From Azolla caroliniana (taxonomy: Eukaryota; Plantae; Polypodiophyta): DNA of 22,106 nucleotides. The notes beneath the pieces were generated by a model. That model worked only from the letters and a program-made list of their open reading frames with translations, did no database searches and was not told the origin of the DNA. Within the stretch, counting starts at the first letter, position 1. The number at the start of each line of letters is the position of its first letter. The stretch spans positions 1 to 22,106 of the forward strand of contig JBHGNT010000511.1 of assembly GCA_043228905.1 (NCBI GenBank), read 5' to 3'. The translations under genes were made by a program, and so were the position numbers. Below, piece after piece: positions 788 to 22,045 of the stretch.

Positions 788-1950
788 CAACCTTTAACAT
801 AATTGTGAACCTTACTCAAATCGTAAGTTTCCACCTTGAGTGTTTGAGCTCAACTTGTGCCCTATTGTTGCTTGTTTCCATATTTTATTAATAGGAATTG
901 TTCTCATTATTCATTTATTGTGCAGCCCTTCATTTTAGTTAAGTGATTAAGGAATACATTGGTAAGTTCATTCTCAGCACATATTCTTCATTATTAAATT
1001 TTGAGTGTTAGAGTGAGGTTATGAAGGCATCTCATTGTGACCTATCTAATTGCTCCACAAATATGGTGAGATATTTGCAAAATTGTATTTATCATAACTT
1101 AGTGACATTTATAAGAAAAAGGTAGACAATACGAAGCATGCATGAGTCAAATGTTTTTAAGGGTGGAAGTTAATGTGTTCTTTTTCAAGTTATCTATAAC
1201 ACCATTGGGATGTTTTTCTAGTTTCTTTCAATGTATTTTCTAGAAAACATTGAACAAATTTGAGAACAATGGATCTTTTGATAAAGATTTAGTGCTAATA
1301 TATTTAATAGTAATCGATAAATTGATAAACAAATAGTACAAATGTGTTTAGAACCATTAGAATCTACAATTAACTCTCTCTTTTTTCTCTCAGCAATGGT
1401 TTATATTATATCTAGGCGATTTACATGATACTTCATCATAGATTTTTACCTTTTCAACTGCTCTTACACTATCATAGACAAACATACCTCCCAAAGCATT
1501 GCCAAGAACAGTTATGCATGGCCACATGCCTCATGTTGGTGGAGGACACACAACCATTAACCATGTAGAATATATTCATCCTTTCCCATCTCTTCTTGAA
1601 AACCTCTTGCTTTCAAAGACTACATTTGAATCACCCTTGGTAGCATCATATTCTCCTTTTAGTGTATGCACTAAGGTCAGCCAGATCTCCTTGACTACAT
1701 CCACAACATTCCATTGAATTTGTTGATATATCCTTTGAGATCTACTAGTCCACAAAACTCACTTAACTCTTTGAATGGGAAACGTTTTTATAAAGTTGTA
1801 ACTTCTATGATATGAAAGAAAGTTGAAGGCTTAGCAAATCTTATTGCCCTTTTATATTAGGTTGCGATTGCATGACTTCCTTCCTTCCAAAATAGAGTGA
1901 CAAATCTTTCTTCAATATCACATACATGTCTCAAACCTATGAGAATAATG

Positions 1951-2440
1951 AGAGTGTTGGTTACTAATATAAATTCCCAAACAAGGAAAACCTAAGTTTC
2001 CCATCATGAACAAAACAGTATATGTAAATTACTTTCGATATGGATGCAGGATCTTATCATTAGCATGGATATCCTCCCCAATATATCTTTGCATGGAGGT
2101 TGATTACTTAACGAAATGCATGAAGTCTATGTAGTTGTGCATGCATGAATTTCAATAAACAAATCAATAAAAAACTAATGAATGTACACACAAGCTTGGA
2201 GACAAGAGTGTTGGTTACTAATATGAATTCCCAAACAAGGAAACCCCAAGTTTCCCATCATGAATGAAACAATATATATGTAAATTACTTTCTATATGGA
2301 TTTAGGATCTTATCCTTAGTGTGGATATCGTCACTGAGTCTATCTTTGCATGGAGGTTGATTATTTAACAAAAAGTATGAAGGCCATCTAATTGTGTATG
2401 CACGAATTCAATAAACGAATTATTATACAATGAATGAATA
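1951..2440. repeat. Diverged tandem direct repeat, 2 copies, period 254 bp
   Basis: AGAGTGTTGGTTACTAATAT(A/G)AATTCCCAAACAAGGAAA starts at 1951 and again at 2205. The copies stay colinear through TATCTTTGCATGGAGGTTGATTA and TCAATAAAC, with scattered substitutions. Confidence 0.9.
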
Positions 2441-4905
2441 AAACCACTAGCTCAGAGACTAACTCCTGAAGGGCTTCATAGGGAATGTTTAGACCTTGCT
2501 TAAGGGTGAACCACAATATACCTTAAAGGCTCAAATAAGTCTTCTTGAAAGTTCTTATTGTGTCATCTATTTATTGGGGGTCCTCTAGAAGGGTTCAATT
2601 TTTGGCCTCATTGACACTAACTATTCATAACGAGCAAAACTTTGGGCAATCAACTTCCAATCAAAATTTGTTATTTAAGTTTTCTCTCGTTGTCCGTCCT
2701 TTTCTATTTTTCATCTCTCTCATGTCATTGATGGGAATTTTATGCCCTAAAATTTAATATCTCTAATGTGACATGTAAATATTCATTATGGTATTTCACC
2801 ACTTTGAGGATTCCCACCATTAATTCAATTCATTGTTAAAACAAGACGTGTGTGTGTATGTGCGCACGTCTTTTTGTTGATTTTTGGATCGTTACAAGGA
2901 GTGCGAGCGGCTTAACACAACAATGTAGGTGGGAGGAGTCAAGACATTTTGTTAGGGACACCAAGTGGGGGAGAATGTTATGTTATTGAGATAGCAAAGG
3001 GGGCCAATGAGGCAACACAAACCAAGGTGGAACCCACCACACTTCCAAAGAAGATGAAAAAAGACCATTGTAATTTGCATGTGAATTTGTCTCATATATT
3101 TGGGGGTTGTGATTCATAACCTCTAATGTGGATAGCTACTTAGGCCTCACAAGGCTCAATTAAAAAATCAGCATTTCTTAGATAGAAGCGAAGGATGTAG
3201 TACATGATCAATCATATTTCGTGTAGCATTTGTACCAATAACATTAGTTCACAAGATAGGATTTCACTATCACCACTTCCATCCTCCTCAACAAGGTTAA
3301 ATATGACCTTCTCTATTAAAGTAAAAGTTGTTGAATTCACAATTTTCCAACCTTTTTTATTTTTTGCTGGGTGGATGATAAATTTCATTTATCTATTACT
3401 TCTTCTCACTTCCTTCGAACAAAAGGTATTGCCCATATTATTAGTATTGTGCATGAATAAGGGGAATCGATAATTGTATGAGGTACCTATATTCAATATA
3501 ATAAAAAAGGACTACCATAGTTGTCTTTCAAATATAGCAATTTGGTAAGGTTGTGATTAATGTAGCTGAAGTTGGTGTAAATAATATACTTAGGTATTGC
3601 CCATACCTTAATGGAAAAGTGTGCTAATGTTACATAATTTATTATATTTGTGTGCATGGATGCCTAGATGCGTAGTGGGATTGACATAAATTAGGTTAAA
3701 TGTTTGTCAACCTAATTTTGTAACTTTCCCATATGAGTAAGAAATTAGTATTGAGGTTGTGTAAGAAATAATGGTTTCTGTAAATGAAGGTATGATTTTA
3801 TTTTTGGGAAAAAAAAGAAAAAAAGGCATGACTTTAATATTCCTAAAGAAGAGAGAAAGATGGTAACAAATTATGTTGGCCATATCAACACACTACAACC
3901 ATGTCTATCTTCTTTACTAGCACACATGTTCACAAAACGGCATGACACATATTAACATCCTCACCATCCAATGTATAACATGCGTCTCTGCATGTGCCTA
4001 AATGTGGAATGGACGATGCATGGGGACACCCTTAACATATGCCACATGAACCATACATTGTTCTCCACATTGCTTGAAGCTATCTTAGGCCATTTTCACG
4101 TGCATGATCGTTCCATATGTGCTATCTTCTTCCTTACAAAAAAAAAGGGGTGGTAGAGATAAAGTACATAAAACATTTGGCTAGACAAGTTTCTCTTATC
4201 ATCTTTGAAATATAGAGATGATAAAAAAAATCACTAAGATTGGGGCTATTGAATGCAATTATTTTGAGTGTCTACATTCACATGCATCACGTGCATGTGT
4301 GCATTAATATAATTCTTCATTGGATTGTAGATGATATGCAATAAAACATTTATGTAAGAAATTGGTTCTCCCATGATCTAGCACAATGTGCCAATAAACA
4401 TTTCCCTACGTTTGTGTATGGGCATGAATATTATTGTTTGGATACAACCATGTACATGCTATAAAGGAAATTGAAGTAACTTGAGTTGAGGCCTATCCTA
4501 AACCCCTCTCTCAAGAACTGAGGTCTTACATATGGTTTATTAAGGGAGACGTAATTTCTCTCTCAAGAACTAGGCAACAACTCGAAATAACAAACATGAT
4601 CTAACACAGACACCTAAAATGTTGATCCCTTAAGAACTAGAAAATAGACAAAGTACACATGTAGTGCATAATAAACACAAGCATGTGTATCAAGACATAA
4701 AAATCTACAAAACAACAAACAAACACATTTAGCATGAAGGGTAACAAGGATCAAACATGCACTAGAACAAGTTAAGGGCATGGTGTTCGAAGTTGGAGAT
4801 GGAGTGAGAAAGATTGGATTGATGTTGGGAATATATATTCACATATTTATGTACACATAACATAGATGTATATATCTATCTAATGTATATAAATATACCT
4901 ATTGA

Positions 4906-4923
4906 TGTGTGTGTGTGTGTGTG
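4906..4923. repeat. (TG)n microsatellite
   Basis: Directly visible. Confidence 0.9.
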
Positions 4924-5057
4924 CAGAAGCATGAGGGAGACAAAAGGCATAGAGGGATACATATGAGGGGTCATAAAACCCAACAAGAAAGAGGTGGACG
5001 AAGAAGGTGGGAGGAAGGTGAGTAAAAAAAGGAAGGGAAGGGGTGGAGTTTAGTATT

Positions 5058-5064
5058 TATAAAA
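5058..5064 (+). promoter_or_regulatory. Candidate TATA box of the dirigent gene
   Basis: TATAAAA 150 bp upstream of the ATG at 5208, followed by a CA/CT-rich leader. Positional evidence only. Confidence 0.35.
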
Positions 5065-5207
5065 ACATGGGCTCAAACATAACCTTTGTAAGAATAAAGT
5101 ACAAAAGACCCAAAAAGATTGTGTTGGAAAAAAATAAAACCTTCACACATACACACATACGTTCTACTTCTCTCTTACTAGCATTGTTTCTCTTTCTCTT
5201 TTGATAG

Positions 5208-5801
5208 ATGGCTTCCACTCTCCCAAACATAATGGTTATCCTCCTAATAATAGCTACCATGGCCTTGGCAACGTCCAATTGGGCAATGGCATCGAGACCT
5301 CGAATAATCAAATACTATGTGCAACAAGAGAGTGAGATCGGAATGATTCCAGCATTGGCCGTGTCAGCAGTAGAACGTGGCTCTGGCAATGCGAGCGGTC
5401 AAAATGCGAATCTCGGTGTAGGCTCTGGGGCTGGTGTCGGTGTCTCAGTTGTGTATGAATACCCCATGACCAAGAATTCAAGTGCTGCCTCACCTGTTGT
5501 TGGTTTCATACGTGGAACATCTGTCGTGGTCAATAGTTCAGCTGCTGGGACACTTTTCTTCATGAACAATGTGATTCATTTTAGCTCCGGAAAATGGGCC
5601 GGAAGCACGATATCCCAACAAGGGGAGGCCATGCTCACACGATCGCCTTGGGAATTGGCAGTGGTTGGCGGAACGGGTGATTTCCGTCATGCTTTTGGCT
5701 ATAATGTTGGCTTCTTGGTGGCCACCTCTCGTACACCTCATAACACTACTCGTATCACCACTCGCTACCATGCCCATCTCTCTTATGTTAAAACTACCTA
5801 A
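5208..5801 (+). CDS. Dirigent-family (DIR/DIR-like) secreted protein, 197 aa, single coding exon
   Basis: Hydrophobic N-terminal signal peptide (NIMVILLIIATMALA). VVYEYPMTKNSSAASPVVGFIRG resembles the dirigent motif VFDDPLT....S..VGRAQG. GSTISQQG resembles GSTL...G, and ELAVVGGTGDFRHAFGY resembles E..VVGGTG.F..ARG. Several N-glycosylation sequons (NAS, NSS, NSS, NTT). Size is typical of the family. Confidence 0.9.
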   Translation: MASTLPNIMVILLIIATMALATSNWAMASRPRIIKYYVQQESEIGMIPALAVSAVERGSGNASGQNANLGVGSGAGVGVSVVYEYPMTKNSSAASPVVGFIRGTSVVVNSSAAGTLFFMNNVIHFSSGKWAGSTISQQGEAMLTRSPWELAVVGGTGDFRHAFGYNVGFLVATSRTPHNTTRITTRYHAHLSYVKTT

Positions 5802-7399
5802 ATGTGGTCACCCTTTTTAACCCCTTTCACTTTTGTGCTTTTGTGTTGGCCTATTATCCACAACCCCCCCCCCCCATGTCATATAGCTCCTAACATGGCC
5901 AATACTTACTACTACTTCCTAGGTACTACCCCTATCCCTAGTATTAATCTACTACTACTACTGTTGTTGTTATTGCTCTTGTTTTAAATATTGTTTGTAA
6001 TTCCCTAATACCTCTATTTTATGGTATGATTTCATTGTTCCCTCTCTTTTTACATCGTTGTGTTTCTCATCATAACTCGGTAGACATTTGTTTTCTTTAT
6101 GCACTCACGGATATGGGTTTTCTATGTAGAATTGTGTTGTTCTTATATTCAACTATATTTCATAATATTGTTGATTGGAATGCTACCAATGTTTGCACCA
6201 AAGGTGCAAGTACTCTATGATGCCATCAATTCCTCAATATCTTTTGAATGTCCATTGAGATGCACCTCTATACACATACACACATATATGTCGTCGTTTG
6301 TAATGTTGGTCCATGGGTGTGCCATAGGTAACTTCGAATTTGGTTAAAATTTCCAATTAGTGGTGTGATGATATGGTCATAGGTTTCCACTAGCACACAA
6401 AAATGTTAGCTTCATGAGGATGTCAAGATTTTAGAAATTCACTTTTACCTGGTGAAAAAACTACATCTCCATTGTGAGGGCAATTTGGTTATTACTATTC
6501 TCCACTCTCATAGAGCATATACCATATGCCCAAAGATCACAAATGAGAAAACTCGCACTTCATCAACTAAAGGTGCGATTGAAGGTTTACACATGTGAAT
6601 TGAATTTATGATAATCTAAATGAATATCTCTCCTTGATGAATGACTTAATATCAACATCTACATCATATAATTTTGTATAAAAAACATCTACCACTTCTT
6701 CTTTGTGACATCATGAATACTAATAACTTAGTTGAGAAATCGCTAAAATATGCTTGCATGTATCCAATTTTAAAAAAGTGAGCTTGCTTACATGTTTTGT
6801 CAAAGTTTAGGATCCTAATCATATAGGATTTGGGATTAAGCATATAGTTAAAGAAAATAACAAGAAACATTGAATTAATCTAATAATTACAATTAAGGAT
6901 AACATGCTTGATTAATTTCCCAATAATCGCAAATCGCTTAACTTTCTAATAAGTGTCTTCATATTTACATAAGAAAAATCCGCAAACTAAAGTTGAGGTA
7001 CAAAGAGCACGGTGAGAGAAATCTACTTGAGAGGGAATCCCGAATCCCAATGCATTGTTGGGGGTTCTTTTCTTCCCCGTAGTCACAAATTATATTTGTT
7101 ATTACAAGAAAAATTAGAAAACTAAACATTATTTTTCTCATTAGAACACCCTTACTTTCTTTCCAAAGAGAAACAAGTAATTAAGTCCTGTAATTACCCA
7201 AATTCATTTTCAAATTGTGGTAAATTAATCTTCATAACCACAGTTTTTTTACAAGCATACATATATTCTTAATCTTGTGAATAGCAAGCAAGACTTGAAT
7301 TTTCAATACATGAAACTTCCTCACAAGTTCCCTCCTCCTTTCATGCATCAAAACGTTGCTCTTTGTCTTCATTTATGACCGTTATTGAGATTGATTTTG

Positions 7400-8210
7400 A
7401 ATTTTCAAATCAAGGTTTGGGACTTTGTTGAAAGGATGCATAGGTTTGATAGCACCAACACGGGTAAACATTTGGCTACTTCAATTTTGAATATCATGGA
7501 TTTGGTTTTCCCTATGCTCATGGATAATTTCGTTTAAGTTACAAAAATCCTCAATGGCTAGAAAGTTAGAATGATGTCGGCATTCCCTAAGAGCACTACG
7601 ACATCACCATAGTGAATTAGTAGCTAAATGTTTGCCTTAGGTTGGCCCTCAAAGTTACTCAAATTTGTGTTACTTGTAAGATGAAATCTTCAAATGGGCC
7701 ACATACCACTCAAGTAGAGGGGTGGAAGGAGGCACCCTTGATTTGTCCCAAGATTGCTTCCAAAACCATCGGAAATCGATCTTATGTTTTTAGTATACAT
7801 CAAACTTGCTTGTAAGTTACGCTATATCAACTCGATATTCATGGTAAAACCAAGTTTTGCCATATCTTCTCCATCGAGTCCTTTTTATGGGATTGCATCG
7901 AAAACATTTTTGAAATCTAGAAAACTACAATGAAGATTCTCTCTCTTGCGACAACATTTTTGCATATTGATGTAGATGGTAACGAGAAAGCATGTCATGG
8001 CATGATCTTGGCTTGAATTGGAGCAAATTTGGAGAATGTGATAACGTTGAAATACCTCGTTCGAATGTCCAGTCACGGTTCCATTGCAAAGTGATTGCGG
8101 TGTGCAATTTATTTGTATTCAACGAAACATGGAATTCAAGTGTTTGTAATGTTATGCACATCAATGTAGGTATAGTATTAAACAATGGTATTAAGAAGTG
8201 AGGGTATTGG
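7400..8210 (-). mobile_element. Decayed LINE reverse transcriptase fragment (frameshifts and stops)
   Basis: Minus-strand translations give RT motifs in the right order: LHCSFLDFKNVFDAIP (F.DF.KAFD.IP), GFGSNLGTNQGCLLPP (GVKQGCPLSP, QGC at 7740-7732), LIHYGDVVVLL (LLYADDLVL, 7620-7588) and IGKTKSMIF (N.SKTK.MIF). Boundaries are approximate. Confidence 0.8.
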
Positions 8211-8281
8211 AGACAAACGTGTAGTTTTTTTTATCATATCTTTGGTGAAACCCTATATGAATGAAGTGGACACATTGCAAG

Positions 8282-8566
8282 AGATTGCCGCGCAAAACTT
8301 GCGTAGGTGTGGCCGGAAAGTTAGGTTTCAGGGACTCTGCCCGGGCATGCCAAGTTTGGCAGGCTTATGAGGAACCAACAAGTTCTCATTCCATTCGGTT
8401 ATCCCTTAAGTAAATAAAACTTATCAACATAGCCTAAGATTGCCGGGCAAACTTGCCACAGGTGTGGCCTGAAAATGGGTTCAGGAGGAGCTTTGCTTGG
8501 GCATGCCAAGTTCTCATTCCATTCAGTTATTCCTCAAGTAAATGAAACTTATCAACATAGCCCAAG
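8282..8566. repeat. Diverged tandem duplication (~155 bp + ~130 bp) just upstream of the PPR gene
   Basis: AGATTGCCG...AACTTGC...AGGTGTGGCC...GGGCATGCCAAGTT...CTCATTCCATTC...AACTTATCAACATAGCC(T/C)AAG occurs at 8282-8438 and 8437-8566. Copy 2 lacks the 28 bp between the two CAAGTT hexamers (8351, 8379). Confidence 0.88.
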
Positions 8567-8680
8567 TCCAAGCAATCAAGCCCCTTTTGTAACTGCTACT
8601 CTCAACAGACTTGCTTCAAGTCCATCTAAGAGCTGAGAGAGTTTTGCTCTTCGCCCAAATGACAATCAATCTATATAGCC

Positions 8681-10183
8681 ATGGCTTCCTTAAGGAGACA
8701 TCAGGGTCTGAACCAAGCACTCAGATATGCAGAGTTGAAGATGCAAGAGGGCGTTCCTATGCTAAGGGGCCATGCTTACACTCTACTTCAACAATGCTCT
8801 AAAGAGCGGAACTTGGCATATACCAGAAGACTTCTCTGCCTTCTGAGGTACAGTAAACTTGATACTATCCCTGTCTTAGCTGACCACATCATTAGACTCT
8901 GGTCATCCTTCCAATGCTTGGAAGAAGCACACGAATCCTTCCAAAAGGTCCAAAAACCAAGTGTTCATACATGGTGTGCCATTATTTCAGCCTATACAAA
9001 TGTTGGTAAGGCTGAAATAGGCTTTGAATTGTATGACAAAATGTTGGATTCTGGTATGCAAGGCAATAAATATGTGTTTCTTGCTGTACTTAAAGCATGT
9101 GGAAACATCGATAGTGTTGGTCAAGGAAGACAGATCCATCATCATATTTTGAGAAGTGGACTTGAATGTGATGTAACTTTAGGTAATGCAATGATAGACA
9201 TGTACGCTAAATGTGGTATGTTAGCTGAAGCTCAGAAAGTGTTCAGCGATTTGCCATGTCGAGATATAGTTTCATGGAATTGTATGCTCTCGGGTTGTAT
9301 ACAACACGCTGATTTTGAACTAGTTTTGGAATGCTTTGAGCTTATGCAAGGAGAAGGTATCACGCCAAATGTGGTCTCTTGGAGTGCAATCATAGAAGGA
9401 TATACACAACATGGTGAAGACATACTTGCATTAGATAGTTATGTAAAGATGCAAAATTGTGGTTTGGATCCGGATAGAGTTACTTTCTTGAGCATGCTAA
9501 AGGTATGTGGTAACCTAGGAGCGCTATATCAAGGAATGCTTATTCATGACCAAGCTATTAGACACGATTGCCAACTAAGCCTAGGAGTGGCCAATGTGCT
9601 TATTGATATGTATGGTAAATGTTGTAGATTGTTGGAATCACGAAAAGTTTTAGATAAATTTCCCGATCGCGATGTGATCTCTTGGAATACAATGATTTCA
9701 GCATATGCACAATCAGACCATTTCGATATGGCGTTGGAATGTCTTGAATTCATGCAGAAAGAGGGCATCAAACCCGACGATGTAACATTTATTAGCATTC
9801 TTTCATCATGTAGCCACATGGGCTTGGTCACCGAATTTTTCAGCTCCCTAAACTGTATGAAAGATAACCATGGGATTATGCCCGATATGAAACACTACAC
9901 TTGCATGATCGATCTACTTGGCCATGTGGGAATGCTAGATGAGGCTGGGAATGTGAAACGAATCATACGTGATGATGCTATAAGTTGGATATCTCTGCTG
10001 ACAGCCTGCAAAAGAAATGGTAATATTGAGCTTGGAAGAGTATGTTTTGATCAAGTCGTGAAAATCGAGCCAGAAAATGCTATTGCTTATGCTCTCATGT
10101 CAGCAATGTATAATGATGCCGGTATGGAGATAAATGCTGCAGCATTGGAGGAGATTTCTTCCAAGCTACCTAGGAACACATGA
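8681..10183 (+). CDS. PLS-class pentatricopeptide repeat protein with E1 and truncated E2, no DYW (candidate organellar RNA-editing specificity factor), 500 aa
   Basis: About 12 motifs in the order L-S-P-L-S-P-P-L-S-P2-L2-S2, e.g. VTLGNAMIDMYAKCGMLAEAQKVF, IVSWNCMLSG, VISWNTMISAYAQ, DVTFISILSSCSHMG, HYTCMIDLLGHVG. Then E1 (SWISLLTACKRNGNIELG) and the start of E2 (AYALMSAMYNDAG). No PG box or HSE/CxxC/DYW signature follows. Confidence 0.95.
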   Translation: MASLRRHQGLNQALRYAELKMQEGVPMLRGHAYTLLQQCSKERNLAYTRRLLCLLRYSKLDTIPVLADHIIRLWSSFQCLEEAHESFQKVQKPSVHTWCAIISAYTNVGKAEIGFELYDKMLDSGMQGNKYVFLAVLKACGNIDSVGQGRQIHHHILRSGLECDVTLGNAMIDMYAKCGMLAEAQKVFSDLPCRDIVSWNCMLSGCIQHADFELVLECFELMQGEGITPNVVSWSAIIEGYTQHGEDILALDSYVKMQNCGLDPDRVTFLSMLKVCGNLGALYQGMLIHDQAIRHDCQLSLGVANVLIDMYGKCCRLLESRKVLDKFPDRDVISWNTMISAYAQSDHFDMALECLEFMQKEGIKPDDVTFISILSSCSHMGLVTEFFSSLNCMKDNHGIMPDMKHYTCMIDLLGHVGMLDEAGNVKRIIRDDAISWISLLTACKRNGNIELGRVCFDQVVKIEPENAIAYALMSAMYNDAGMEINAAALEEISSKLPRNT

Positions 10184-11902
10184 AGAAACTAGAAGATATT
10201 GGAGTTGTTTCCCCCAATTTCGTCATTCCTGTTTTAGAAGTTCTGATCTGAAAATCTTTCTTGATAAGGATCGTCAAGGTTTGGGCTTTTAAGTAGAAAG
10301 AGTCCCATTTAGCCATATTTCAAGAATTTGAAGGTCTTGCTCCATGTGAAAGATTACAGAAGTCTGAACACAAGCAACAATGTAGTCTCATCCAGTTGCA
10401 CCTTGGTATTGTTGCATGAAGATGCAGTTGATGGTAAACGGTATAGAAAGTTTATTTGAATCATGCTCGTGTTGCACCTCTCTCCATCTCAAAATTTGTG
10501 CTCAATTATCCCATAAGCTTATCCCCATGGAATTTGACCAAAATGCATCAAGATGGCCCTACAGTTCCTTTGACTGTATCAGTCACCAAATTTACTGAAA
10601 TTTTAATCTGGTTAAAAATAATTCCTAAAATCCCGCTCGTAAGTTAACCAATTTATGACTACTTTTCATGGGCTTCTCATGTATTTTTTTGTAAGGTCAC
10701 TCCTATGCATAACTAGAGAAAAACACTTATGTACCTCAGAGTTGCAGCTTGACATGTCCAGCTGGGAGAAGTTGTATTAGGTCGGTCTATGAATTATTGG
10801 TGGGAAGCATTGTTAAATTGTCATGAATCCTTCACACCATAATGTGACAATCAAACCAGAGTGTTGTATTGGTAATGGTGAATGAGATTTGGGTTGGGAT
10901 TTTAATGAATGCCTATAGACATTGGATTATCACACAGATTTTCATACTATACACCAATTATGATCGTTGTTTCATTTTGATGGTTTGCATTTGACAATAC
11001 TAGTAAACAGATACTGACTTAGATAATTAAAACTAGCAAGAAATTAAGGAATTAACAATGGGCGACCTAGTCCTTTACTATGAAGAAAGAAACATAGACC
11101 ATTTCATAAATAAATATTTAAAAACAGGTGACTGTGGCATTGTTGTAAACCATGCAACCTCTAGTCCAACAATTAGCAAGACAAAAAGTGACATTGTTAA
11201 GTGTTATATAACATTCTAGCTAGCTAATTATGGTCTAATTATTAAAATATATCCACTAGCTTATGCAAACTTTATGGAATATATGCTCAACTCTTAAAGA
11301 TGTTTCAGAAATGGTGACAAATATTTATTTTGACTAACCCTTCATTTAAGAAGTTATGTAGGTCAGTTTGTTGTGACTAGTTGCCATTTTGATTGATTTA
11401 TTGTAAGCATATGCAACCTTAAAGGTGAAAATCAAAACAATGAGTTCATGTAATTTCAACGCAAAGTCTATATCCTACTTGTAAAATCTCTGCATTCAGA
11501 ACATTGTAGACTCAACCGAAACTCCAGGGAATTGAAATAAACATACACAACGAATAGGAAATGAGCCTATGATTCTAAGAAATGTTATCCTAGGCAAGTC
11601 CGAGTCAAGAGCAATTGAGAAACCACATCATTTTTTTTCCGTTCTTTAGGTGGTTTACCTTTCTATCTTTCTCAAAGTTTTTTGATGATTTTACTGCAAT
11701 GGTTGCAACCCAGCAATTAAAGTCTTTTTGCATATAGTTTAATTCGTGTCACATATAGAGCAGACCTCGATATAAGAAGAGTTAATTGATGATACGCACA
11801 ATGACATTAGATTCCTTCATTTCTTTATTGTTTTGGATGGTCATGTGGGATTGGTTGATGAACGAAGATGTGCAAAAGAATGTTGTGCTTGTGGTCTCTT
11901 AA

Positions 11903-11970
11903 CTCCATTAATCCCTATCAGAAATGTGTTTTTCTATCTCCATTAATCCCTCTCAGAAATGTGTCTTTCT
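11903..11970. repeat. 35-bp tandem duplication in the last exon of the acidic-protein gene
   Basis: CTCCATTAATCCCT(A/C)TCAGAAATGTGT(T/C)TTTCT at 11903 and 11938. Confidence 0.92.
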
Positions 11971-14289
11971 TCCAAATCTTTTGTAACTGCGCAAACCTGC
12001 ATGTGGAAGGGCATAGAAACATAATGTTTAAATGGAAAGGAAACCATGTAGTACGCTTGACATTGCATTCTGTGCATTGCCTTATCTATGATCAAAGTAA
12101 AATTAAGCCCATCTCAGCTATTCGATGAAACGTGCACTTTCAACAACAAGATTGTAACCGACGATGGTTATGAAACTTTGAAATTAAGGAGAATAATGCA
12201 TCACCATAGATTGCAAATTTGGTTGGTAGTCTCAATTATATATACCTTGTAGCATGTTCATTAAGGAAAAGTGATACCATTTGATCGATTATGTCCACTC
12301 AATGAGAGGATCATGCTTAGATGTGTCTGGAATGAGAACATGGCAGGATATCAGAGATTTACCTGGCAACACGATCAATTTTACCACCTTTGCCAGATGA
12401 CCCATCATTCCCAACGCTACAACGGCTTGTAAGGTGGATCAATGAATGTTTTCTTTGATCTTCAGAATTCATGTTTCCTCTTTGCCCTATTTTAATTGTT
12501 CCACAATTACTAAAGTTCTTTCTTTCTTAAAAATGTAGAATGTCGGGTATTAGATCAAACTTAAAAGAAAAGACCAAACATTAAAAGACAAGTTAGGAGG
12601 ATCTTAAGGCAAATGTATTTTTACCTTTTTAAGGGTTTGTATAGACAAACAATATATGGTGAGCCTACCACAGTAGTGAGAGCACCTTATGGCAGTTTAT
12701 AAATTATTTGTGTGAATGGATGGATGTATGAATGTATATATAAACTAATCAGGATTAGCTAGCTGATTAGGAGGAAGTAAGTAGGATTAATGAACCGCTT
12801 AGAATTCGCTAACCAGAATTGTTCCATCCTTAAACATCCAAAAGTAAGACTTACGCAGGCAGGGGCTGTAGCTCTCTGTGCTGATTCGCCCACCATTCAT
12901 CAAGTTATTGCAATTCTCCACTTCATCTCCGATCCGCCCATCAGAATTAACCATACGATTCTCATCATTAACCCCTTGATTCACAAAATTATTCACGTTA
13001 TCCCCATTAATCCTCCTCTTCGGTGGTGCAGGATTTCGCCTGATTTTGGCCTTTATCGTGCTCTCAGTCGTCTGACTCTTCGAGATGGAGCCGTGATTAG
13101 ATTCTTTGATCACTTCACTGACATCATTAATGCTTAATCTCTTCACCGAATTCTGATCTTTCTTTGACAGTCTGATGGAGTTCTTGATTGATCTTTCCAT
13201 GATGGGTGACAAAGGGGGTGAATTGATTATGGGATTGATTACGTAACTAGTGGGTGTATTATAATTTATTGACCCAAGGGGGCCATGATTATCACTATTT
13301 AATTGGATTGGGCTGGTTTTTACTTTCCCAATCAATGGATAAATTGGTTCCTCTGTTATCGAATCGACCTCCGCAATGGGTGATTGGCTGAGAAAAACAG
13401 AGTTTGTTAATTGAAGAGATAAATTATTGTCTGAACCATTCGAAGAAGACATGGACGGTTCGAACAATGGTAAGAAATCCTGTAATTTCAAATGGGTTAG
13501 CTGTGATGCCTGATCGATTGGCTGATTTTCCAGGTTTTGGCAAGTAACTTTCCCATTTTGATCCATTCGTTGGCTAGCAGTAATCTCCTGATTGTTATCA
13601 GGATTTTGGCCGAAATGATCTGATGCTTTGGTATACATTTCCAGCTGATTTTCACGGATTTCTTCAAATTTATCAATCATTTCTTCTTTAATTTGATCAA
13701 TTAATTCTGTGTCAGATATGCTGATGGACGAATGTGGAGAATAATTAAATCGTTCTCCACCTTCGTTTAGAGCTATTTCTTCATCATAATCATCATATTC
13801 GTCTTCTTCTTCTTCTTCTTCTTCTACGACTAATGCTTCTTCTCCCCCTCCTACTCCTCTTTCTACAGCTATTTCTTCATCATCATCTTCTTCTTCTTGT
13901 TTTTCAACTATTTCTTCTTCTTCTTCTTCTTCTTTTTCAACTATTTCTTCTTCGTCTTCTTCTTGTTGTTGTTTTCCAACTATTTCTTCTTCGTTTTCTT
14001 CTTCTTGTTTATCATCTATTTCTTCTTTCTCAACCTCCTTCACCTCTTCTTCTCCTTCTTCTTCTCCTTCTACAGTTGTTTCTTCTTCATCATCATCATC
14101 TCCTTCAATTAATTCGTCCGGTTCTGATTCGAAACGATGTTGTGTTTCTTCTTCTAACTCGTCCGGTTCTTCATCTAATGCTCCTGATTCTTCTGCTTCC
14201 ATTTCCCCTTCCCATTCTTCTTCTTCTTCTTCTTCTTTAATGGCACTTAATCCATCATCACTAATGTCATCACTCTGTGACGAGTCCAT
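11918..14289 (-). CDS. Acidic low-complexity protein with a C-terminal HYLS1-like motif; predicted exons 14289-12855, 12525-12363, 11996-11918 (558 aa)
   Basis: Long Glu/Asp-rich ORF from ATG 14289. A consensus donor C|GTAAGT at 12854 (phase 1) joins acceptor TTTTTAAG| before 12525. Donor CAG|GTAAAT at 12362 (phase 2) joins acceptor TGCAG| before 11996. The phases match and give ...SPCLQRKNFSNCGTIKIGQRGNMNSEDQRKHSLIHLTSRCSVGNDGSSGKGGKIDRVARFAQLQKIWKKDTFLRGINGDRKTHF*. The gene itself is well supported; the HYLS1 assignment is by recalled motif similarity only. Confidence 0.75.
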
Positions 14290-14314
14290 CTAAATATAAG
14301 GATAGGCTCTGTTT

Positions 14315-14316
<2 letters not shown>

Positions 14317-14353
<37 letters not shown>
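14317..14353. repeat. (GA)n microsatellite, i.e. (TC)n in the leader of the minus-strand gene
   Basis: Directly visible; starts 28 bp upstream of ATG 14289. CT-repeat leaders are common in plant 5' UTRs. Confidence 0.95.
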
Positions 14354-14356
<3 letters not shown>

Positions 14357-14557
14357 GAAGGGGGGGGAAGCAGGGGATATGGAGGAATTGGAGCAGCGAA
14401 GGGAGGCGAACCCCCCTCTTCTCAATTCCAAAACCAACTCCCCCCAAATAAAATCACTTACATCTTCTTCTTCTCCTCCTCTTCTAAAACCAACCCTTTT
14501 ATTTTAAGTACCTTACCTTACTGGTAAATTGTTACACACAAGCATTATGTATGTCTT

Positions 14558-14893
14558 GGGTTCAAAACCCAATTTTCTCACCTCATACATATCTCCTTTA
14601 ATTCACTAAATGCCTGTGAATGTAGGGGTTGAACCCATGACATGCTCGGGTTTGGTTTGAAACCCAATTTTCTCACCTCTCTATTAGATACTTCATATCT
14701 CCTTTAATTCACTAAATGCCTGTGAATGTAGGGGTTGAACCCATGACATGCTCGGGTTTGAAACCCAATTTTCTCACCTCTCTATTAGATACTTCGTCTA
14801 GACATCTCTTTTAATTCACTAGATGCCACTGTGGAATGTAGGGGTTGAACCCATGACCTCCTGGTCTCCATTGGGCAGCCTTACCAATGGGCT
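14558..14893 (-). mobile_element. tRNA-derived SINE-like element with its body amplified as three tandem ~90-106 bp units
   Basis: The minus strand from 14893 reads AGCCCATTGGTAAGGCT (A-box-like, D-arm stem AGCC/GGCT) ...AGGAGGTCATGGGTTCAACCCC (variable loop plus B-box GGTTCAACCC). On the plus strand, units start at 14558, 14648 and 14754, each with AAACCCAATTTTCTCACCTC...TTTAATTCACTA...GAATGTAGGGGTTGAACCCATGAC. Confidence 0.6.
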
Positions 14894-14902
14894 TTTGTTC
14901 AA

Positions 14903-14904
<2 letters not shown>

Positions 14905-14941
<37 letters not shown>
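14905..14941. repeat. (TC)n microsatellite
   Basis: Directly visible. Confidence 0.95.
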
Positions 14942-14945
<4 letters not shown>

Positions 14946-15580
14946 TATTCATTAAGTTAAACAAAGGAGGCAAAACTACATATATAGATTCCATTCACAC
15001 ATCAATGCACCCTCTCTAATCTATTCTCCGAGGGTTTCTTTATCTATGAGATCCTCGATTCATAGTTTTAAAAAAGAATCCAACACCAGCCCTCCTCACA
15101 TGTCATCATGGCTCCAATGGTTGCACAATCTAGGTGTCATTGCCTTCGTACAATTCAAGCCCATGTTGGGAGAATTCAAGCGAATGTCTAGCAAGCTTGG
15201 TAAGTATGGGTGTCAAGTGATGGTATTGATCTATGCACCCACCATCTCAAATATGATTGATAAAAAACAATGGCCTACAATAACACAAGGTAAAAATAAA
15301 GTTCTCCAACATGACATTCCTATTATAAGATGTGCGCCCTTGTTGCTACTTAAATTTTTATTAAATTTTAATGCTTCCCAACATGCTCTCCATAAATTTT
15401 AATCATCTTGCTTTGCCATTGGATCATCAAGTCTCATACATCCAAAAAATGGATAGACTATTAGTAAAACACAACATTTTACACCCATATTCCACATAAC
15501 CCTCTCTTCATCTTGTTGCCCAACATGAACTTGTCACATTACACACCTTTATAGCCCTTCACATTCTAACCTTATACGAG

Positions 15581-15830
15581 AATCCTTTGACCTCCCACTC
15601 CTTTTAAAGAGACCTGAATGCAAATGAAACTAGACTACACATATAACCATTTCCATTTTAGAATATATTACTACCCGTAACATCTTTTAAACCACAAACT
15701 CTTTTATCTATGTTTATTTTTATTTTCATTTTCGATGATTGGGCACACATCCCAATATTGTCACCAATTGTGCCCATGGACCAAATTTAGTCTTACAAGA
15801 CATTAATGTCTGTCTCTGTGTCCTCTCTCC
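15581..15830 (+). mobile_element. 5'-truncated, diverged copy of the LINE 3' end seen at 511-787
   Basis: AATCCTTTGACCTCCCACTCCTTTTAAAGAGACCTGAATGCAAATGAAACTAG aligns with AACCCTTAGACCTCCCGCTTCTCTTCGAGAGACTTGGATGGAAATGAAATTAG (511-563). TTTCGATGATTGGG...CCCAAT...CATGGACCAAATTTAGTCTTACAAGACATTAAT aligns with 674-755. It ends in a degenerate pyrimidine-rich tail. Confidence 0.8.
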
Positions 15831-17251
15831 ACGCAAGTGCACTTGTTCAAATCCCTCATACATATTACGAATGCACTACATGCATGGAAATGCATCAAGA
15901 TAATGATCAAGCAGTTATAAAAACCTGCAGCTTTTATTTTTTTTCAGTATAGATGGGGCATTAAATCACCGATATTTGGGATCAAGGTTTGTCTCAAACC
16001 AACTTTGGGCATCTCGCATTCATTAGTATATCATTCTTTTCCTTCTGTTTGGAAGACAAAAAACACTTGAATGCAAACCTTTGATGTGTAAACACTGAGA
16101 TCAGTTGAAGACTAATTGCAACATACTCTGCAAACAGATTTCAATGCCACCCTCACTATGCACTAGGTCTCCCATTCTCACTCATGATACTTCAGAAATA
16201 TTACTTTGCAAATCAGTACAAATATATGTCAAAAAATATAATTACATCGTTCATGATTTCAAATAGGATACACATCATACATTCTGCACACAAATTCAGT
16301 AGTTACACATCATATAAACATGTCCTTTCAAGGCTTGGTCTCATGCCTAGGAGAGTAATCGAAGAATCTCTCAATTACTCTCATGCAGGGCAGAATTAAA
16401 TGTTCCTTGCAATTATCCCATGTTGATTAATGCAATTAATTAAATCTTGGTTAGATTAACCCTTCCTAACTATTCTAAATTACACATTAATGAAATGCAT
16501 ATTGATTGTTTAATGATTTTAATTCGCATCAACTTGTAGTTTTACAGTTAAGTACCTCTTCATTACTTAAATGAGAATTATAATTAAATCCTTCATTACT
16601 CCAATAAGTAAGTCTTTATGATTACAATAATTAAATCCCTGATTACACCAATTGATCATTTAATTATTAATCCACATCCAACTCCAAATACACATCCAAC
16701 TCATCACTTTTAATTATTAATCCCTGTCATCCTAATTAAATGTCCAACACATCATTCCTTACAATTAGCTAAGAAAAAAGGGGCCACTAATTAGAAAAGC
16801 TAAAACTAATTTAAAAAAACAGATATTAAGGAAAAAATGTTGAACTCATTATTTCAAAAAAGTTGACTCTGTTGAAAGCAAGCAGAGTGCAGTCTAAATA
16901 AAATTTGCACCCTTATTGAATTTCGAGTGTTACTTAGGAGTGCACATGAATGGAATAATTATGTACATATCCAACTAATGTTTGATTTTTAGTATTATAA
17001 GTATTGTAACAGAGTATCTTCTACTTACAAGAATGATGTGATTGTGGTGATTCTTGACCTGAGGTTGCTAAATTTTGGGCTTGCCATTCTTCTGAGATAA
17101 AATGTTCCATTCGCTCGACTGAATAAGATTTAAACAGGACATTCAATTGAGTTTATTTGAATTTCGTAAATTATATAGCAGTGAGCATTTGAGATTGTAA
17201 AAGAACGGCAAATTTCGTAATACTGAAAGTTCAGATTTCCAGAATAGGAGG

Positions 17252-20200
17252 TCAAACCTCAATCATCCCATTCCGATTCCCATCAAACATTCGATAAATC
17301 AGGTCCAACTCCCTCTGGTAAAATACAGATCCCATGCAAACATACAGGTACAACTTTATCATGTAAATTTCATTTTAGTAATTAATGTGTTAAGGCTATG
17401 AAACTGGACAGAATTACTCAGATAGGCATATAACATTATTTCACAAAGCTTAAAGCGTTTTTTATTATTGCTAGCATTTATATAAACAAGATTTTTTTAA
17501 TCATAAATAGCTACAGACAACCAGTAGTTTCTCCTTATCTATGGGTCACTATTTGTAGCAGTAGAAATATTTTAGGGTTTTGGGTTTAATATTTTAAAGA
17601 GATATATATCCACTTAATAGAATAACAGCCTTAAGTTAAAACTTGCCATATCAAATGTTTCCTTAGATTTACATAAGGAAAAACTAAGCATTATATGTTA
17701 CAATCAACCACTTTTAGCATAAAGCAGTTGGTAAGATGAAACTAAGCCTTGAGATAAAACTTGCCATAAAAACCATTTTATCTAACGAAAAATTAAGCAT
17801 TAAATTACAAACTATTAAATTGTTACATCTATCATCACCCACTTTTCGAATGAAGCATGTTGTAGAATGACCTTTGAGTATTTGCTCAAATTCTTCTCGA
17901 CTCAATCGATGCCCTTCACCTGCAATACACCGTCGCATAAACTCTAGAAATCTTGAACTCTTTAAAAAATAATCAAATCATGTGAGAAGTGTAGAAAGCT
18001 TAGCAAACTTCTCAGATACAAGTTCAGGAAAACGATGTTATCCCAACACCAAATTTGAGATCAGTATAGCGCATATCCGTCATACATATAAACACATTAA
18101 AATTCAATTACTCCAAAATAGTTATGATTAAACTTCAATACAAGGTTGTAAGATATAAAACTCTCATCAACAAAAAGATGAAGATAATTGTCGATAGATC
18201 CAGATGAAAGGTCCTGTAAAATATTGACTCAACATCATCACTTTTTCCTCTCCATAAGCTTGACATATGGTAAGTATCTATGTGGGATGAAGATGAGATC
18301 TATATCACAATTCCATAAGCTATTTTTTGACCCATCATTCAGCTGTTTTATGCCACTTTTCTAGCTCCCTCATTATGTGAATACATACACACACACACAC
18401 ACACACACGTTTACATTCTGCTACTAAAAGAACTGACTGTTTGTACGTGTCACACAGCCAGTATCATGATCTTAATAGGTTGAACCAATATGGCCTTACA
18501 AATATGTATACTTCATATAAATGTCACTGCTGCTCAAAATAGTCTGAGATGAGCATAATATCATCTCAACAACAACGTCACAAACCCTTAACTCGAATAT
18601 GACCATAAACCAATCAATAGGTTCCGCCTCCACATAAAATATATTTATACAAAAATGTACAATGCGTATAGATGTCACAGCTGACTCCTCAAAAGAGGAG
18701 CATGATATGATTTCCTGATCAACATCCCATATAGCCCCACAAACCAATAGATTCCAGTTTCCACAATAAGTTAGGTAAAATCCATAGGTGATAAAGAGGG
18801 AAGCCTGCTTCTGACATTTTAACTTGTAGCCAGAATTGTAAGAAGATTTAACTTTCTTGACAGAAATGCAATCGTTACACAAAGTCAAGCTTGGTGCCCT
18901 TGACCACCATCTTGTGGGAAACAGCATAATTTTAATGCATACAAAGCATGTAGATAATATGCATGTGGGATCCCCCATGAAACTGTTGGAATTAGTGTGT
19001 TCCAATGTATTCAACGCCACTTCCTGTTCATTCATTAGGAATTTGGTTCTTTATCACATTCATTGATGTTGCTACAAGGTATGGGTCTACCTGTCGAAGA
19101 ATAAGGAAGCGCCCTTAAGTATGGTCAAGTTATGAATGGCTGTAGTAGAGTTGGAAAAATGCTGGAAGCTGAGAACTCTCTATTTGGAGAATAGAGGAGA
19201 ATTTAATTATTAAAAAATCCAGATTTTCAGCGAAAATTGGGGAAAAGGCAAGATAACAGAGAGGAAAGCTTCATAACGGATGCCATACATTTGTCAGATA
19301 GGTTCTAATTGCTGTCTCCAGAAGACCTCTGGCATAGGTCAACGCAGAATGGATAGACCACTAAAGCAAAGGGAGCACCTATAGCGGCAGGGAGATAATG
19401 GCATTTATCTGCCAATGACAAAGGGTGGGAAGATCATGGTTTGTAAGGCCAGGGATTTCGAAGTTCTATATGATCCAGGTGTCTGATGCAGTGATACACT
19501 ACATCCCTTCCATCAAGTTCTTCTTACTGTCAATGCAGAGCCTCTTACCCTCAAAAAGGCTAGGACATGTCAATCTCCAAATAAGTGTGAGTGTGCTATG
19601 CAACAGGAGGTCAAATAGCCTTCCTACATGGAAATCTAGACGAGGAGCTATATATGAAGTGACTAGAAGGATTTGTAGTCTTAAGGAAGAAGCAATTGCT
19701 GTGCAGAAATAGGCCCCATGCCAATCATAGAAGAAATTTAATTGCTCTCGCAGAGTTTCATCTCTACATAAAGCACAAAGATGGCAGCCTTATCATACTA
19801 GTTTCCTCTCTACATAAACCACTGACACACTAATTGCAGGAAAACATGATAAGATTCTGCAGGAAACAAAAAACAAATTCAAATTTGCATTGCTTAGTAA
19901 AGATCTAGGACACACTGACCATATTCTTAGAATGAGGATCATGCAGGACAGACAAAAAGGTGTTTATTTTAAGAAAAGTATAGTGAGAAGCTATTGGACA
20001 GATTTCACATGGCTGATGCTAAGCGACTTTTAGCACTTCTTCAGCCTCAAGAGAAGCTTTCAAAGGCAAATTGTCCCACTACTGATGCAGCAGCCGCAGA
20101 TGTGGCATGCTTCATTTTGCAGATAATTGATGCACACTATGGCATCGTCATGTCCAAACACCACATATGCAGAACTAGTCAACAGATTCATGTTTCGACC

Positions 20201-22045
20201 CCGACCAAGCCATTGGGTTGCAATCAAGTAAATACTCAGGTATCTTCATGGCACTAAGGCAATGTGTCTATGACATGGTAAAAGGATCAGAATCTTAATG
20301 GTTACTGTGATTCTAACATGGCAAGCAATGTGGATTCTAACATGTTCACTCTTGCAGGAAGACCTAGCTATTTCATGGAGCTTTCCAGCTTCAATGGATA
20401 ATCATTCTGCTAGCACAGAAGCGTACATCTCAGCTATAGAGGCTTCGAAGGAAGCCATTTGGTTAGCTTGATTACGTGCATACAATGGACTTCCATAGCT
20501 AGGTCCAATCTTAATGGTTACTGTGATTCTAACATGGCAAGCAATGTGGATTCTAACATGTTCACTCTTGCAGGAAGACCTAGCTATTTCATGGAGCTTT
20601 CCAGCTTCAATGGATAATCATTCTGCTAGCACAGAAGCGTACATCTCAGCTATAGAGGCTTCGAAGGAAGCCATTTGGTTAGCTTGATTACGTGCATACA
20701 ATGGACTTCCATAGCTAGGTCCAATCTTACATCATTACAGCCAAAGTGTAAGTTTCATGCAAGGATAAAGAACATTGATGTATTTGTGAGATGATTGAGG
20801 ATGGTTCCATCTGTCTAGTTAAGTTTGATACCAGTCAATATCCAGCAGATTGTCTTACAACATCTCCCAAAGACCATCAGCAATGACATTAGCCTAGGTG
20901 GCTAAATTTTGTGCCACCTGTTCAAATAAATGCCACTTCTGACTTAAAAGAGCCTGAGATGAGCACAATATATCGCAGACCCTCAATTCATATATCGCAG
21001 AAAACCAATAGGTCACAGTCTCAACATGAGCTTTGTACATGATATTGTCTCAAATGCATTGTGGAAATTCACAAAGCAAAATTGTGTGTGCTCTATCCTC
21101 TCGAATTACAGCTCTAACAGTCAACATGTGATCCAACATTGCGAATGTATCCTGAGCCTTGCTTTTCCTATTCTGTCATAAACAGTTCCACTCAAACTCC
21201 AAAATCAGTTCATATAGTTTGGCCAAGTATTAGTCAATCATGATACTATGACTCAGGGTATCTCCACTTTTAAAGAGCAAGATATTATAAAGCATGAACG
21301 GGAAATCACTCAAGCGTCAATTGATACATTACAAACCTTGGCTGGCAACAGATTGGAAGATATCATCTATAGCATTCATGTGCTGCAGTAGGTCTCTTAA
21401 AGCGGCAAGATCCTAAAATATATAAGTGAAACTTCAAACTGCATTCATGGCATCCCTTCTGACTAATATTCAGCATTAGGGTTGCCTGCCATTACCTGAG
21501 CACGTTGCTTATCTTTAAAATTGGGAACAATACGCAATGCAATAATCAAACCAAGAAAGCATGATAGGGCTAGTGTTGATGTTGTCCCAATCACCCAGTA
21601 GAACATATGAGGATGAACTTCTACTCCACTATGTTAAATTACATGTAAGTTATTAGAGCCTTGTTTTAAATGGTTCAAAAAATTGCATTGATGACATATA
21701 CCTTGTAAGGTTCATGCCAAAGAAACTAGCAGGTACAGTAGCTCTGCAAAGTGATTGTACCTCATTAAGGAAAGGTAATACGACTATGTTTAAAATCTAT
21801 GGTATGAATCGCTACTCACAGACTGAAGGTCACAGTTGCAATAGACATATAAAGGTTCATTGTTATGATCCGATTGCGTGTTGTATCAAGCCCAAGCTCC
21901 CAAACCTCCATGTAGCAATTTACACTTACAACTTACGTCAGCCATCACAAGAAAAAATATATATAAATATTTCAATAATAGCTACCTCTTGAGCTGCATC
22001 CATTCCCTTTCTCATCTCCTCAAGAGCACCTCCACAATCATCCAC
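17252..22045 (-). CDS. MRS2: CorA/MRS2 (MGT)-family magnesium channel, 3' part, with a C-terminal EF-hand extension; predicted exons 22045-21986, 21905-21820, 21743-21702, 21628-21496, 21412-21337, 17919-17843, 17314-17252; 5' exons lie beyond the window
   Basis: Seven GT-AG-bounded exons join in matching phases (0,2,2,0,1,0; introns 80, 76, 73, 83, 3417, 528 nt). They give VDDCGGALEEMRKGMDAAQEVWELGLDTTRNRIITMNLYMSIATVTFSLATVPASFFGMNLTSGVEVHPHMFYWVIGTTSTLALSCFLGLIIALRIVPNFKDKQRAQDLAALRDLLQHMNAIDDIFQSVASQGEGHRLSREEFEQILKGHSTTCFIRKRELDLIYRMFDGNRNGMIEV*. LD..RN.II..NL, TM1-GMN, a short loop and TM2 are the CorA/MRS2 signature. The exact 3' end is uncertain because of a possible donor GAG|GTTTGA at 17257. 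Confidence 0.88.
18387..18408. repeat. (AC)n microsatellite in the large MRS2 intron
   Basis: Directly visible. Confidence 0.95.
18512..21230 (+). mobile_element. Old, internally deleted Ty1/copia LTR retrotransposon inserted antisense in the 3.4-kb MRS2 intron
   Basis: Broken plus-strand motifs occur in copia order. Integrase: KLLELVCSNV (LELVHSDV), FITFIDVAT, KLRTLYLENRGEF (LRSDNGGEF). RT: ICSLK...AP (VCKLKKSLYGLKQAPRQW), KDLGHTDHILRMRIMQDRQK. RNase H: GYCDSNMASNVDS, STEA..AIEASKEAIWL, FHARIKNIDV, YPADCLT. A diverged direct repeat flanks them (18512 onward vs 20921 onward, sharing TTCA.ATAAATG.CACT and CTGAGATGAGCA.AATAT), consistent with LTRs. Outer limits are approximate. Confidence 0.85.
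20291..20729. repeat. Perfect 216-bp tandem duplication in the copia RNase H region
   Basis: 20291-20506 is identical by eye to 20507-20722. AATCTTA occurs at 20291, 20507 and 20723. Confidence 0.95.

Follow-up and report, generated by a model that had tools for sequence, protein, structure and literature searches.

An MRS2-type magnesium channel gene of Azolla caroliniana with a predicted C-terminal EF-hand pair, conserved in a clade of non-flowering plants

The window analyzed here is a 22,106-nucleotide (nt) stretch of the Azolla caroliniana assembly GCA_043228905.1 (contig JBHGNT010000511.1, positions 1 to 22,106). On the minus strand, between positions 22045 and 17068, it encodes the C-terminal part of an MRS2-type magnesium channel in which the pore-forming core is followed by a predicted EF-hand tail. 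Eight short coding exons, separated by GT..AG introns, join into one open frame of 193 residues that ends in TAG; transcript-like contigs run on past the stop to at least 17002, and about 1,190 nt of one of them (run X2) precede 22045 and correspond to upstream exons outside the window. A preliminary description of this DNA, made from the sequence alone, had recognized seven exons, all of which are present, with GT..AG borders and in one frame. It had overlooked the eighth (17118-17068), so that the gene does not end at 17252, as proposed, but extends through exon 8 to 17068. The intron between positions 9 and 10 of the EF loop explains why that description stopped at 17252, and probably also why the public gene models of Taxus (P0028) and Sphagnum (P0024) halt or derail at this point. 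From sequence comparison and by analogy with characterized homologs, we favor, with a probability of about 0.5, the reading that the product is a Mg2+ channel of mitochondria, on which matrix Ca2+ acts as an inhibitor through the built-in EF-hand. The parts of the gene are as follows.

21986..22045, minus strand: exon 1, 20 codons; stalk helix, with the Glu that aligns with E312 of human MRS2
21820..21905, minus strand: exon 2; end of the stalk and first transmembrane helix (TM1); in alignment, Asp 21887-21885 corresponds to the pore-ring residue D329 of human MRS2 and Arg 21878-21876 to R332
21702..21743, minus strand: exon 3; end of TM1 and the Gly-Met-Asn (GMN) filter motif (21718-21710)
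21496..21628, minus strand: exon 4; acidic loop, second transmembrane helix (TM2) and basic post-TM2 segment
21337..21412, minus strand: exon 5; conserved post-TM2 helix, and the entering helix of the predicted ligand-less first EF-hand
17920..21336, minus strand: intron 5, 3,417 nt; repeat-derived DNA, removed by splicing in five runs
17843..17919, minus strand: exon 6; short ligand-free loop and exiting helix of the predicted first hand, linker
17258..17314, minus strand: exon 7; entering helix of the predicted second hand and loop positions 1-9 (D1 at 17284-17282, N3, N5, G6, I8, E9)
17068..17118, minus strand: exon 8, coding part; loop positions 10-12 (Glu12 at 17112-17110), exiting helix, stop codon TAG at 17070-17068

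A profile built from 31 orthologs and run against all six frames of the window picks out the first seven exons at E values from 1e-15 to 1.4e-4, with no other match below E 2; it scores the spliced product at 328 bits. Pfam scans of single exons gave no match in five of six cases, exon 7 alone matches EF-hand_1 (E 0.01), and exon 4, used by itself in a word-index search, yielded no relative among 13 candidates. To assess splicing, we used assembled contigs from eight public runs, none of which is recorded as RNA, their RNA status being a program's guess; X1 is probably DNA, X9 has no aligned contig, and X8, which shares its sample with X5, stands outside the eight. One contig of 1,843 nt (X2 contig 8) contains all eight exons, skips all seven introns and shows 0 differences in its 8 listed pieces. 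The transcript check proposed in the preliminary description, across the 21337/17919 and 17843/17314 junctions, bore it out, each junction being bridged in five of the eight runs. The first, across the 3,417-nt intron, is found in X2, X4, X5, X6 and X7, from five studies, the short side of the X4 match being only 30 letters; the second, which builds the EF loop together with 17258/17118, is found, as is the latter, in X2, X3, X4, X5 and X7, from four studies. In moss genomic DNA (locus L048), seven introns occupy the corresponding positions, among them the intron that separates loop positions 9 and 10.

These data bear on the possibility that the EF exons come from another gene or from chance, the fusion being an artefact of joining across a 3.4-kb intron. 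Such an artefact might be suspected from one contig (X6; window 17735-17917) that retains intron 6 and from public models of Ginkgo (P0004) and Riccia sorocarpa (P0005) that lack the tail. It is, however, refuted for practical purposes by single contigs that cover the entire chain and by dozens of contiguous orthologs, along with intron-free algal open reading frames (ORFs), that hold core and tail in one frame. The retention of intron 6, seen in one run, may represent unspliced RNA or an isoform.

After splicing, the loop of the second hand reads D1, N3, N5, G6, I8, E9 and E12, a canonical 12-residue EF loop with ligands at positions 1, 3, 5, 9 and 12; Glu12, the bidentate ligand, is contributed by exon 8 and was missing from the earlier ligand list. 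The loop of the first helix-loop-helix is short and variable and has no Asp or Asn ligands, so each subunit would offer one candidate ion site, not two. Sequence and structural models thus lead us to interpret the tail as a pseudo-EF plus canonical EF pair with one candidate ion site; the EF-hand pair fused to an MRS2 core, as first described, stands in this form. Among 50 loops (53 rows, near-duplicates included, less three incomplete ones), Asp is retained at position 1 in 49, Asp, Asn or Ser at position 3 in 46, a ligand-type residue at position 5 in 49 and Asp or Glu at position 9 in 44; position 12 is Glu in 43 and Glu or Asp in 49. A PROSITE-type EF pattern fits 36 of the 50, including the loop of the window. 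Mean column conservation over 25 rows is 0.82 for the stalk, 0.80 for the post-TM2 helix, 0.61 for the second-hand loop and 0.41 for the first loop. The domain-profile check suggested earlier gave both expected families: MRS2-like PF22099, the N-terminal alpha/beta domain, in 32 of 36 members (orthologs, since in the Azolla gene this domain is encoded beyond the window, by upstream exons) and EF-hand_7 in 21 of 36 at E<=0.01.

The fold of the tail was read from AlphaFold models of two orthologs (P0012 and P0002), which have helix-loop-helix pairs with short strands in both loops and a predicted local distance difference test (pLDDT) score of about 70-80 in the tail. When the short model was submitted to Foldseek, all 36 listed rows were EF-hand entries, among them the EF domain of polycystin-2 (root-mean-square deviation 2.6 over 62 columns); in a wide structural search the matches were taken up by the long helices (residues 1-99), not by the tail. 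As a separate observation on exon 5, residue 120 of the spliced product is Asn, where 36 of 36 aligned orthologs have Asp; the X2 contig and a close genomic relative (L021) agree with the window.

The core is that of an MRS2 channel. GMN is present in exon 3 and in 31 of 31 orthologs, and the model of P0012 has helices at 315-398 and 409-457, that is, a long stalk continuous with TM1, a short loop and TM2; in the window, TM2 passes a hydropathy cut-off of 1.5 and TM1 fails it. The pore rings are represented by Arg in 25 of 25 and Asp in 24 of 25 rows, both residues being present in the window. Of 31 full-length green members, 29-31 retain each of the following: the GMN motif, the Asp and Arg of the pore, and the four acids that form site 3 in the human protein (E138, E243, D247 and E312, numbered by counting from G360). 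A Foldseek search with a full-length ortholog model retrieved human MRS2 at E 1.7e-14, and Chaetomium Mrs2 also ranked far ahead of bacterial CorA (E ~1e-5). The family shares with human MRS2 (PDB 8ip3, 8tul, 8ts1) and Chaetomium Mrs2 (8q8p, 8q8q) the N-terminal domain, the stalk and the TM1-GMN-TM2 fold (profile E 5e-38), as well as the Asp/Arg pore rings and the site-3 acids; however, the profile match ends at TM2 (position 405-409 of 512), and these proteins have no EF tail there.

Within the core, M336 of human MRS2 is replaced by Ile in 23 of 25 members of the EF-tailed clade, and the second Arg of the Arg-Asp-Leu-Arg (RDLR) motif is missing. This motif was read in orthologs, since the exons for it lie upstream of the window. 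Its second Arg is kept in none of the 31 full-length green members (23 have Asp) and in all six aligned homologs without an EF loop, a comparison in which two further EF-less rows and three marine EF rows were unaligned; one marine EF row has Leu at this position. In Chaetomium Mrs2, according to the available text of PMC11919701, the second RDLR Arg stabilizes the open state. Because this Arg is missing, we set the clade apart, on sequence grounds, from the canonical RDLR-gated Mrs2 proteins, though it is taken to work alike.

The altered motif also invites the rather unlikely alternative that the EF loop is a Mg2+ sensor, which at millimolar matrix Mg2+ would close the channel in place of the fungal Mg2+/RDLR switch. 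The change in all 31 members would fit such a sensor, as would the 29 of 50 loops with only three acidic ligands and the Asp12 of the marine loops, few acidic ligands or Asp12 being features that lower the Ca2+ selectivity of an EF loop. Glu12, on the other hand, is a Ca2+-type bidentate ligand and occupies its place in 43 of 50 loops, and the site-3 acids are kept in 29-31 of 31 members, so the N-terminal divalent site remains.

The EF-tailed proteins form a conserved subfamily. A search with exon 2 returned seven representatives at E<=0.001, one with a full-length member 35 proteins, and one with an alignment 43 (the latter two each among about 8,000 scored candidates). Members come from algae (Spirogloea, Klebsormidium, Coccomyxa, Asterochloris), liverworts (Marchantia, Riccia, Calypogeia), mosses (Sphagnum, Physcomitrium, Ceratodon), lycophytes (Diphasiastrum, Selaginella), ferns (Adiantum, Ceratopteris) and gymnosperms (Cryptomeria, Taxus, Ginkgo, Welwitschia), with one gene in Marchantia and two in Physcomitrium among the matches; in these searches, which were not exhaustive, no named angiosperm or hornwort appeared among the 35 and 43 matches. 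Green algae, bryophytes, lycophytes, ferns and gymnosperms have the conserved tail, as does a marine non-green group. That Cryptomeria, Taxus and Welwitschia and the marine group carry it runs counter to the earlier suggestion that it might be restricted to algae and seed-free plants. Identity of the window product to fern proteins amounts to 73-79%; with the near-complete proteins of bryophytes, lycophytes and gymnosperms it is 45-59%.

In a tree of the core, computed without the tail from 59 rows that include no angiosperm, fungal or animal MRS2, the window nests among ferns (support 100/98) inside one green clade of 30 rows (100/97). This clade, along with the homology search, upholds the idea of a conserved EF-tailed subfamily put forward in the preliminary description. 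The window groups with the Marchantia protein MARPO_0032s0166 (P0014) in a 23-row land-plant clade (98/97). Seven of the 80 metagenome loci kept from 159 entered the tree as the marine group; they form a separate clade (100/99) and have a homologous tail. Outside the loop, the tails of the green and marine groups align with a probability of 87% (E 3.8e-6), whereas those of two further loci, L042 and L047, do not align with the EF-tailed groups (probability under 1%). A single origin of the green and marine groups is neither demonstrated nor rejected by the core tree or by the approximately unbiased test (p-AU 0.159), and a quick, unfinished mixture tree joined them at a Shimodaira-Hasegawa-like approximate likelihood-ratio (SH-aLRT) value of 90, together with a long-branch bacterial row.

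Several other sequences came to light in these searches. L042 and L047 are GC-rich eukaryotic MRS2 genes with long post-TM2 tails lacking an EF loop, and the RDLR-type motif is intact in L042. A tail-less MRS2-like gene (L040:2-820, plus strand; PF22099 E 5e-20) lies on a contig of 26% G+C whose other ORFs look bacterial; such a bacterial Mrs2-like protein may bear on the origin of the family. In the marine loci L005 (83-2683) and L010 (1669-5427), a related large gene, bromodomain-like by eye, adjoins the EF-tailed MRS2. Finally, the ESM Atlas, in which matches for the tail under 0.9 were treated as leads only, offers at 0.84 a 51-protein CorA cluster with Oomycota as its commonest taxon and EF-hand families on 29%, possibly a second CorA-EF fusion.

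Part of this clade is present in a published tree. In the available text of Ishfaq et al. 2021 (PMC8733655), a third plant MRS2/MGT clade, 'Clade III', has no angiosperm members; Table S1 equates MpMRS2 with Mapoly0032s0166, i.e., P0014 of our set, and neither a fern nor a gymnosperm was sampled. Judging from naming and text, the EF-tailed clade is very likely identical to 'Clade III', the algal edge of which is unsure, since the Chlamydomonas 'MRS2' of that study is treated in the accessible part of PMC10484576 as an MGT10 homolog with an incomplete model. The term 'EF-hand' is absent (0 instances) from the body text of Ishfaq et al., as far as available, and was not found in the accessible portions of PMC13022745 (including section 9 and the supplementary file), PMC6345045 and PMC5712471; PMC7865908 has it once, in a reference title. 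In the literature searched, from which subscription papers (e.g., Knoop et al. 2005), theses and bioRxiv supplements fell outside the scope, we found no account of an EF-tailed MRS2. The subclass, of which the preliminary description could not say whether it was known, appears to be undescribed as far as its tail is concerned, but not as a clade, its Marchantia member having already been placed in a tree. It should be noted that precomputed Pfam annotation already assigns EF families to some of the proteins, which makes the fusion apparent in databases, although it seems not to have been discussed. The angiosperm proteins MRS2/MGT1-10 are likewise GMN-type magnesium transporters with two transmembrane helices; to our knowledge, they end soon after TM2 without EF-hands.

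The N-termini of the orthologs resemble mitochondrial presequences. Over the first 16 residues of 30 members, green and non-green alike, Arg makes up 12.9%, acids 2.1% and Ser 8.3%, and such Arg-rich, acid-poor N-termini that are not rich in Ser fit mitochondrial better than plastid presequences. At least two Arg and at most one acid within 20 residues are found at 22 of 30 N-termini versus 58 of 642 internal windows. According to the accessible text of bioRxiv 2023.08.12.553106, the matrix is where TM2 of human MRS2 ends and where the protein's C-terminus lies; given a mitochondrial location and this topology, the EF pair would face the matrix, as the N-terminal domain does, and a tail facing the mitochondrial matrix is what we consider likely. 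The channel could instead reside in the plastid envelope, endoplasmic reticulum (ER), tonoplast or plasma membrane, its EF-hand reading cytosolic or stromal Ca2+, a setting implied in the preliminary description. This we regard as quite improbable in view of the Arg-rich, acid-poor and not Ser-rich N-termini, even though eight of the 30 fail the presequence criterion and the Chlamydomonas 'MRS2' listed by Ishfaq et al. is elsewhere, in the text available, called a chloroplast MGT10 homolog. Angiosperm MRS2/MGT proteins, moreover, are assigned in the accessible part of PMC13022745 to the tonoplast, plasma membrane, ER, chloroplast and mitochondria (MGT5), that is, mostly outside mitochondria.

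The reading that we prefer, a mitochondrial Mg2+ channel inhibited by matrix Ca2+, can be put as follows. As in the solved Mrs2 structures, a pentamer in the mitochondrial inner membrane would conduct Mg2+ through the GMN filter into the matrix, with five tails encircling the pore at its matrix face. A rise in matrix Ca2+ would load the canonical loop, and the conserved post-TM2 helix would carry the effect on to TM2 and the stalk close to the Arg ring, whereupon Mg2+ flux would fall. Inhibition is chosen as the sign of the effect because the available text of bioRxiv 2023.08.12.553106 reports that human MRS2 is inactivated by Ca2+, the responsible site not having been found.

A number of observations weigh against this reading. 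Gly6 is retained in only 25 of 50 loops, the loop of the window carries only three acids, and the EF loop (0.61) is less conserved than the post-TM2 helix (0.80). The Pfam EF scores are mostly under the curated cut-offs, and the Foldseek matches of the tail all lie above E 0.001, the best at E 0.075. A transcript retaining intron 6 would swap the canonical EF loop for unrelated residues. The change in the RDLR motif may, from its sequence distribution, be one ancestral event, in which case the 31 rows are not independent. The presequence criterion is crude, was set after the sequences had been viewed, fails in 8 of 30 cases and was applied to ortholog N-termini only. Lastly, loop position 3 is occupied by His in a subgroup of gymnosperm sequences (P0018, P0019, P0020 and L003), which also have Ser at position 6, so decay of the EF site may be under way in part of the lineage that stands nearest to the angiosperms.

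Some of these features would suit a tail that is a structural or partner-binding module, in which a bound ion stabilizes the fold and does not gate the pore. Within the tail, conservation is highest in the post-TM2 helix and at the hydrophobic core positions; Gly6 is gone in half of the loops, the loops are degenerate in L007, L010 and some gymnosperms, and L042 and L047 have long tails with no EF loop at all. D1 and an acid at position 12 are each retained in 49 of 50 loops, over a range that runs from green algae to gymnosperms and takes in the marine group; this is nevertheless hard to explain without ion binding, and we judge a purely structural role unlikely.

Tails of this kind have counterparts in other systems. 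The C-terminal EF domain of polycystin-2 (TRPP2), a member of an unrelated channel family, also consists of one atypical and one canonical hand on a channel tail, and its first hand is not known to bind Ca2+. Calbindin D9k and S100 proteins likewise pair a pseudo-EF with a canonical EF (calbindin D9k match, E 0.016). With polycystin-2 as with these proteins the likeness is one of architecture only, and the E-values are weak. MICU1 and MICU2, which match the tail weakly in a profile comparison (E ~1e-3), exert EF-hand control over a mitochondrial cation channel, the Ca2+ uniporter. They are, however, separate subunits and face the intermembrane space, whereas here the EF pair is fused to the channel and predicted on the matrix side.

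Within a well-studied family, the clade is a variant in domain make-up. It provides a candidate for the Mg2+ channel in the mitochondria of non-flowering plants, which leads one to ask what took its place in angiosperms. In the accessible text of bioRxiv 2023.08.12.553106, removal of the obvious acidic site left the Ca2+ shut-off of human MRS2 in place. The EF-tailed clade offers a channel with a discrete, mutable candidate Ca2+-type site in genetically tractable organisms, so a coupling of Ca2+ to Mg2+ becomes testable by two point mutations. We also put forward, tentatively and with more doubt than confidence, a broader scenario in which green plants and a marine non-green algal lineage would have had this clade as their ancestral mitochondrial Mrs2, its fused matrix Ca2+ sensor having replaced the RDLR/Mg2+ open-state switch and the gene having been lost outright in flowering plants. 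If this were true, mitochondrial Mg2+ uptake would be wired to Ca2+ differently in angiosperms and in all other plants.

Three further genes were noted in the window. An intronless dirigent-like gene of 197 amino acids (Pfam PF03018, E 2e-16) occupies 5208-5801 on the plus strand, and a pentatricopeptide-repeat gene of 500 amino acids with a weak E motif at its end occupies 8681-10183 on the same strand. On the minus strand, 12799-14289 is an ORF of 496 amino acids that has no Pfam match at E<=0.01 and whose long N-terminal half is rich in Glu and Asp. Within intron 5 of the channel gene, 20291-20729 is a perfect 216-bp tandem duplication, either recent or an assembly artefact, whose translation resembles what we take to be a copia-type RNase H fragment.

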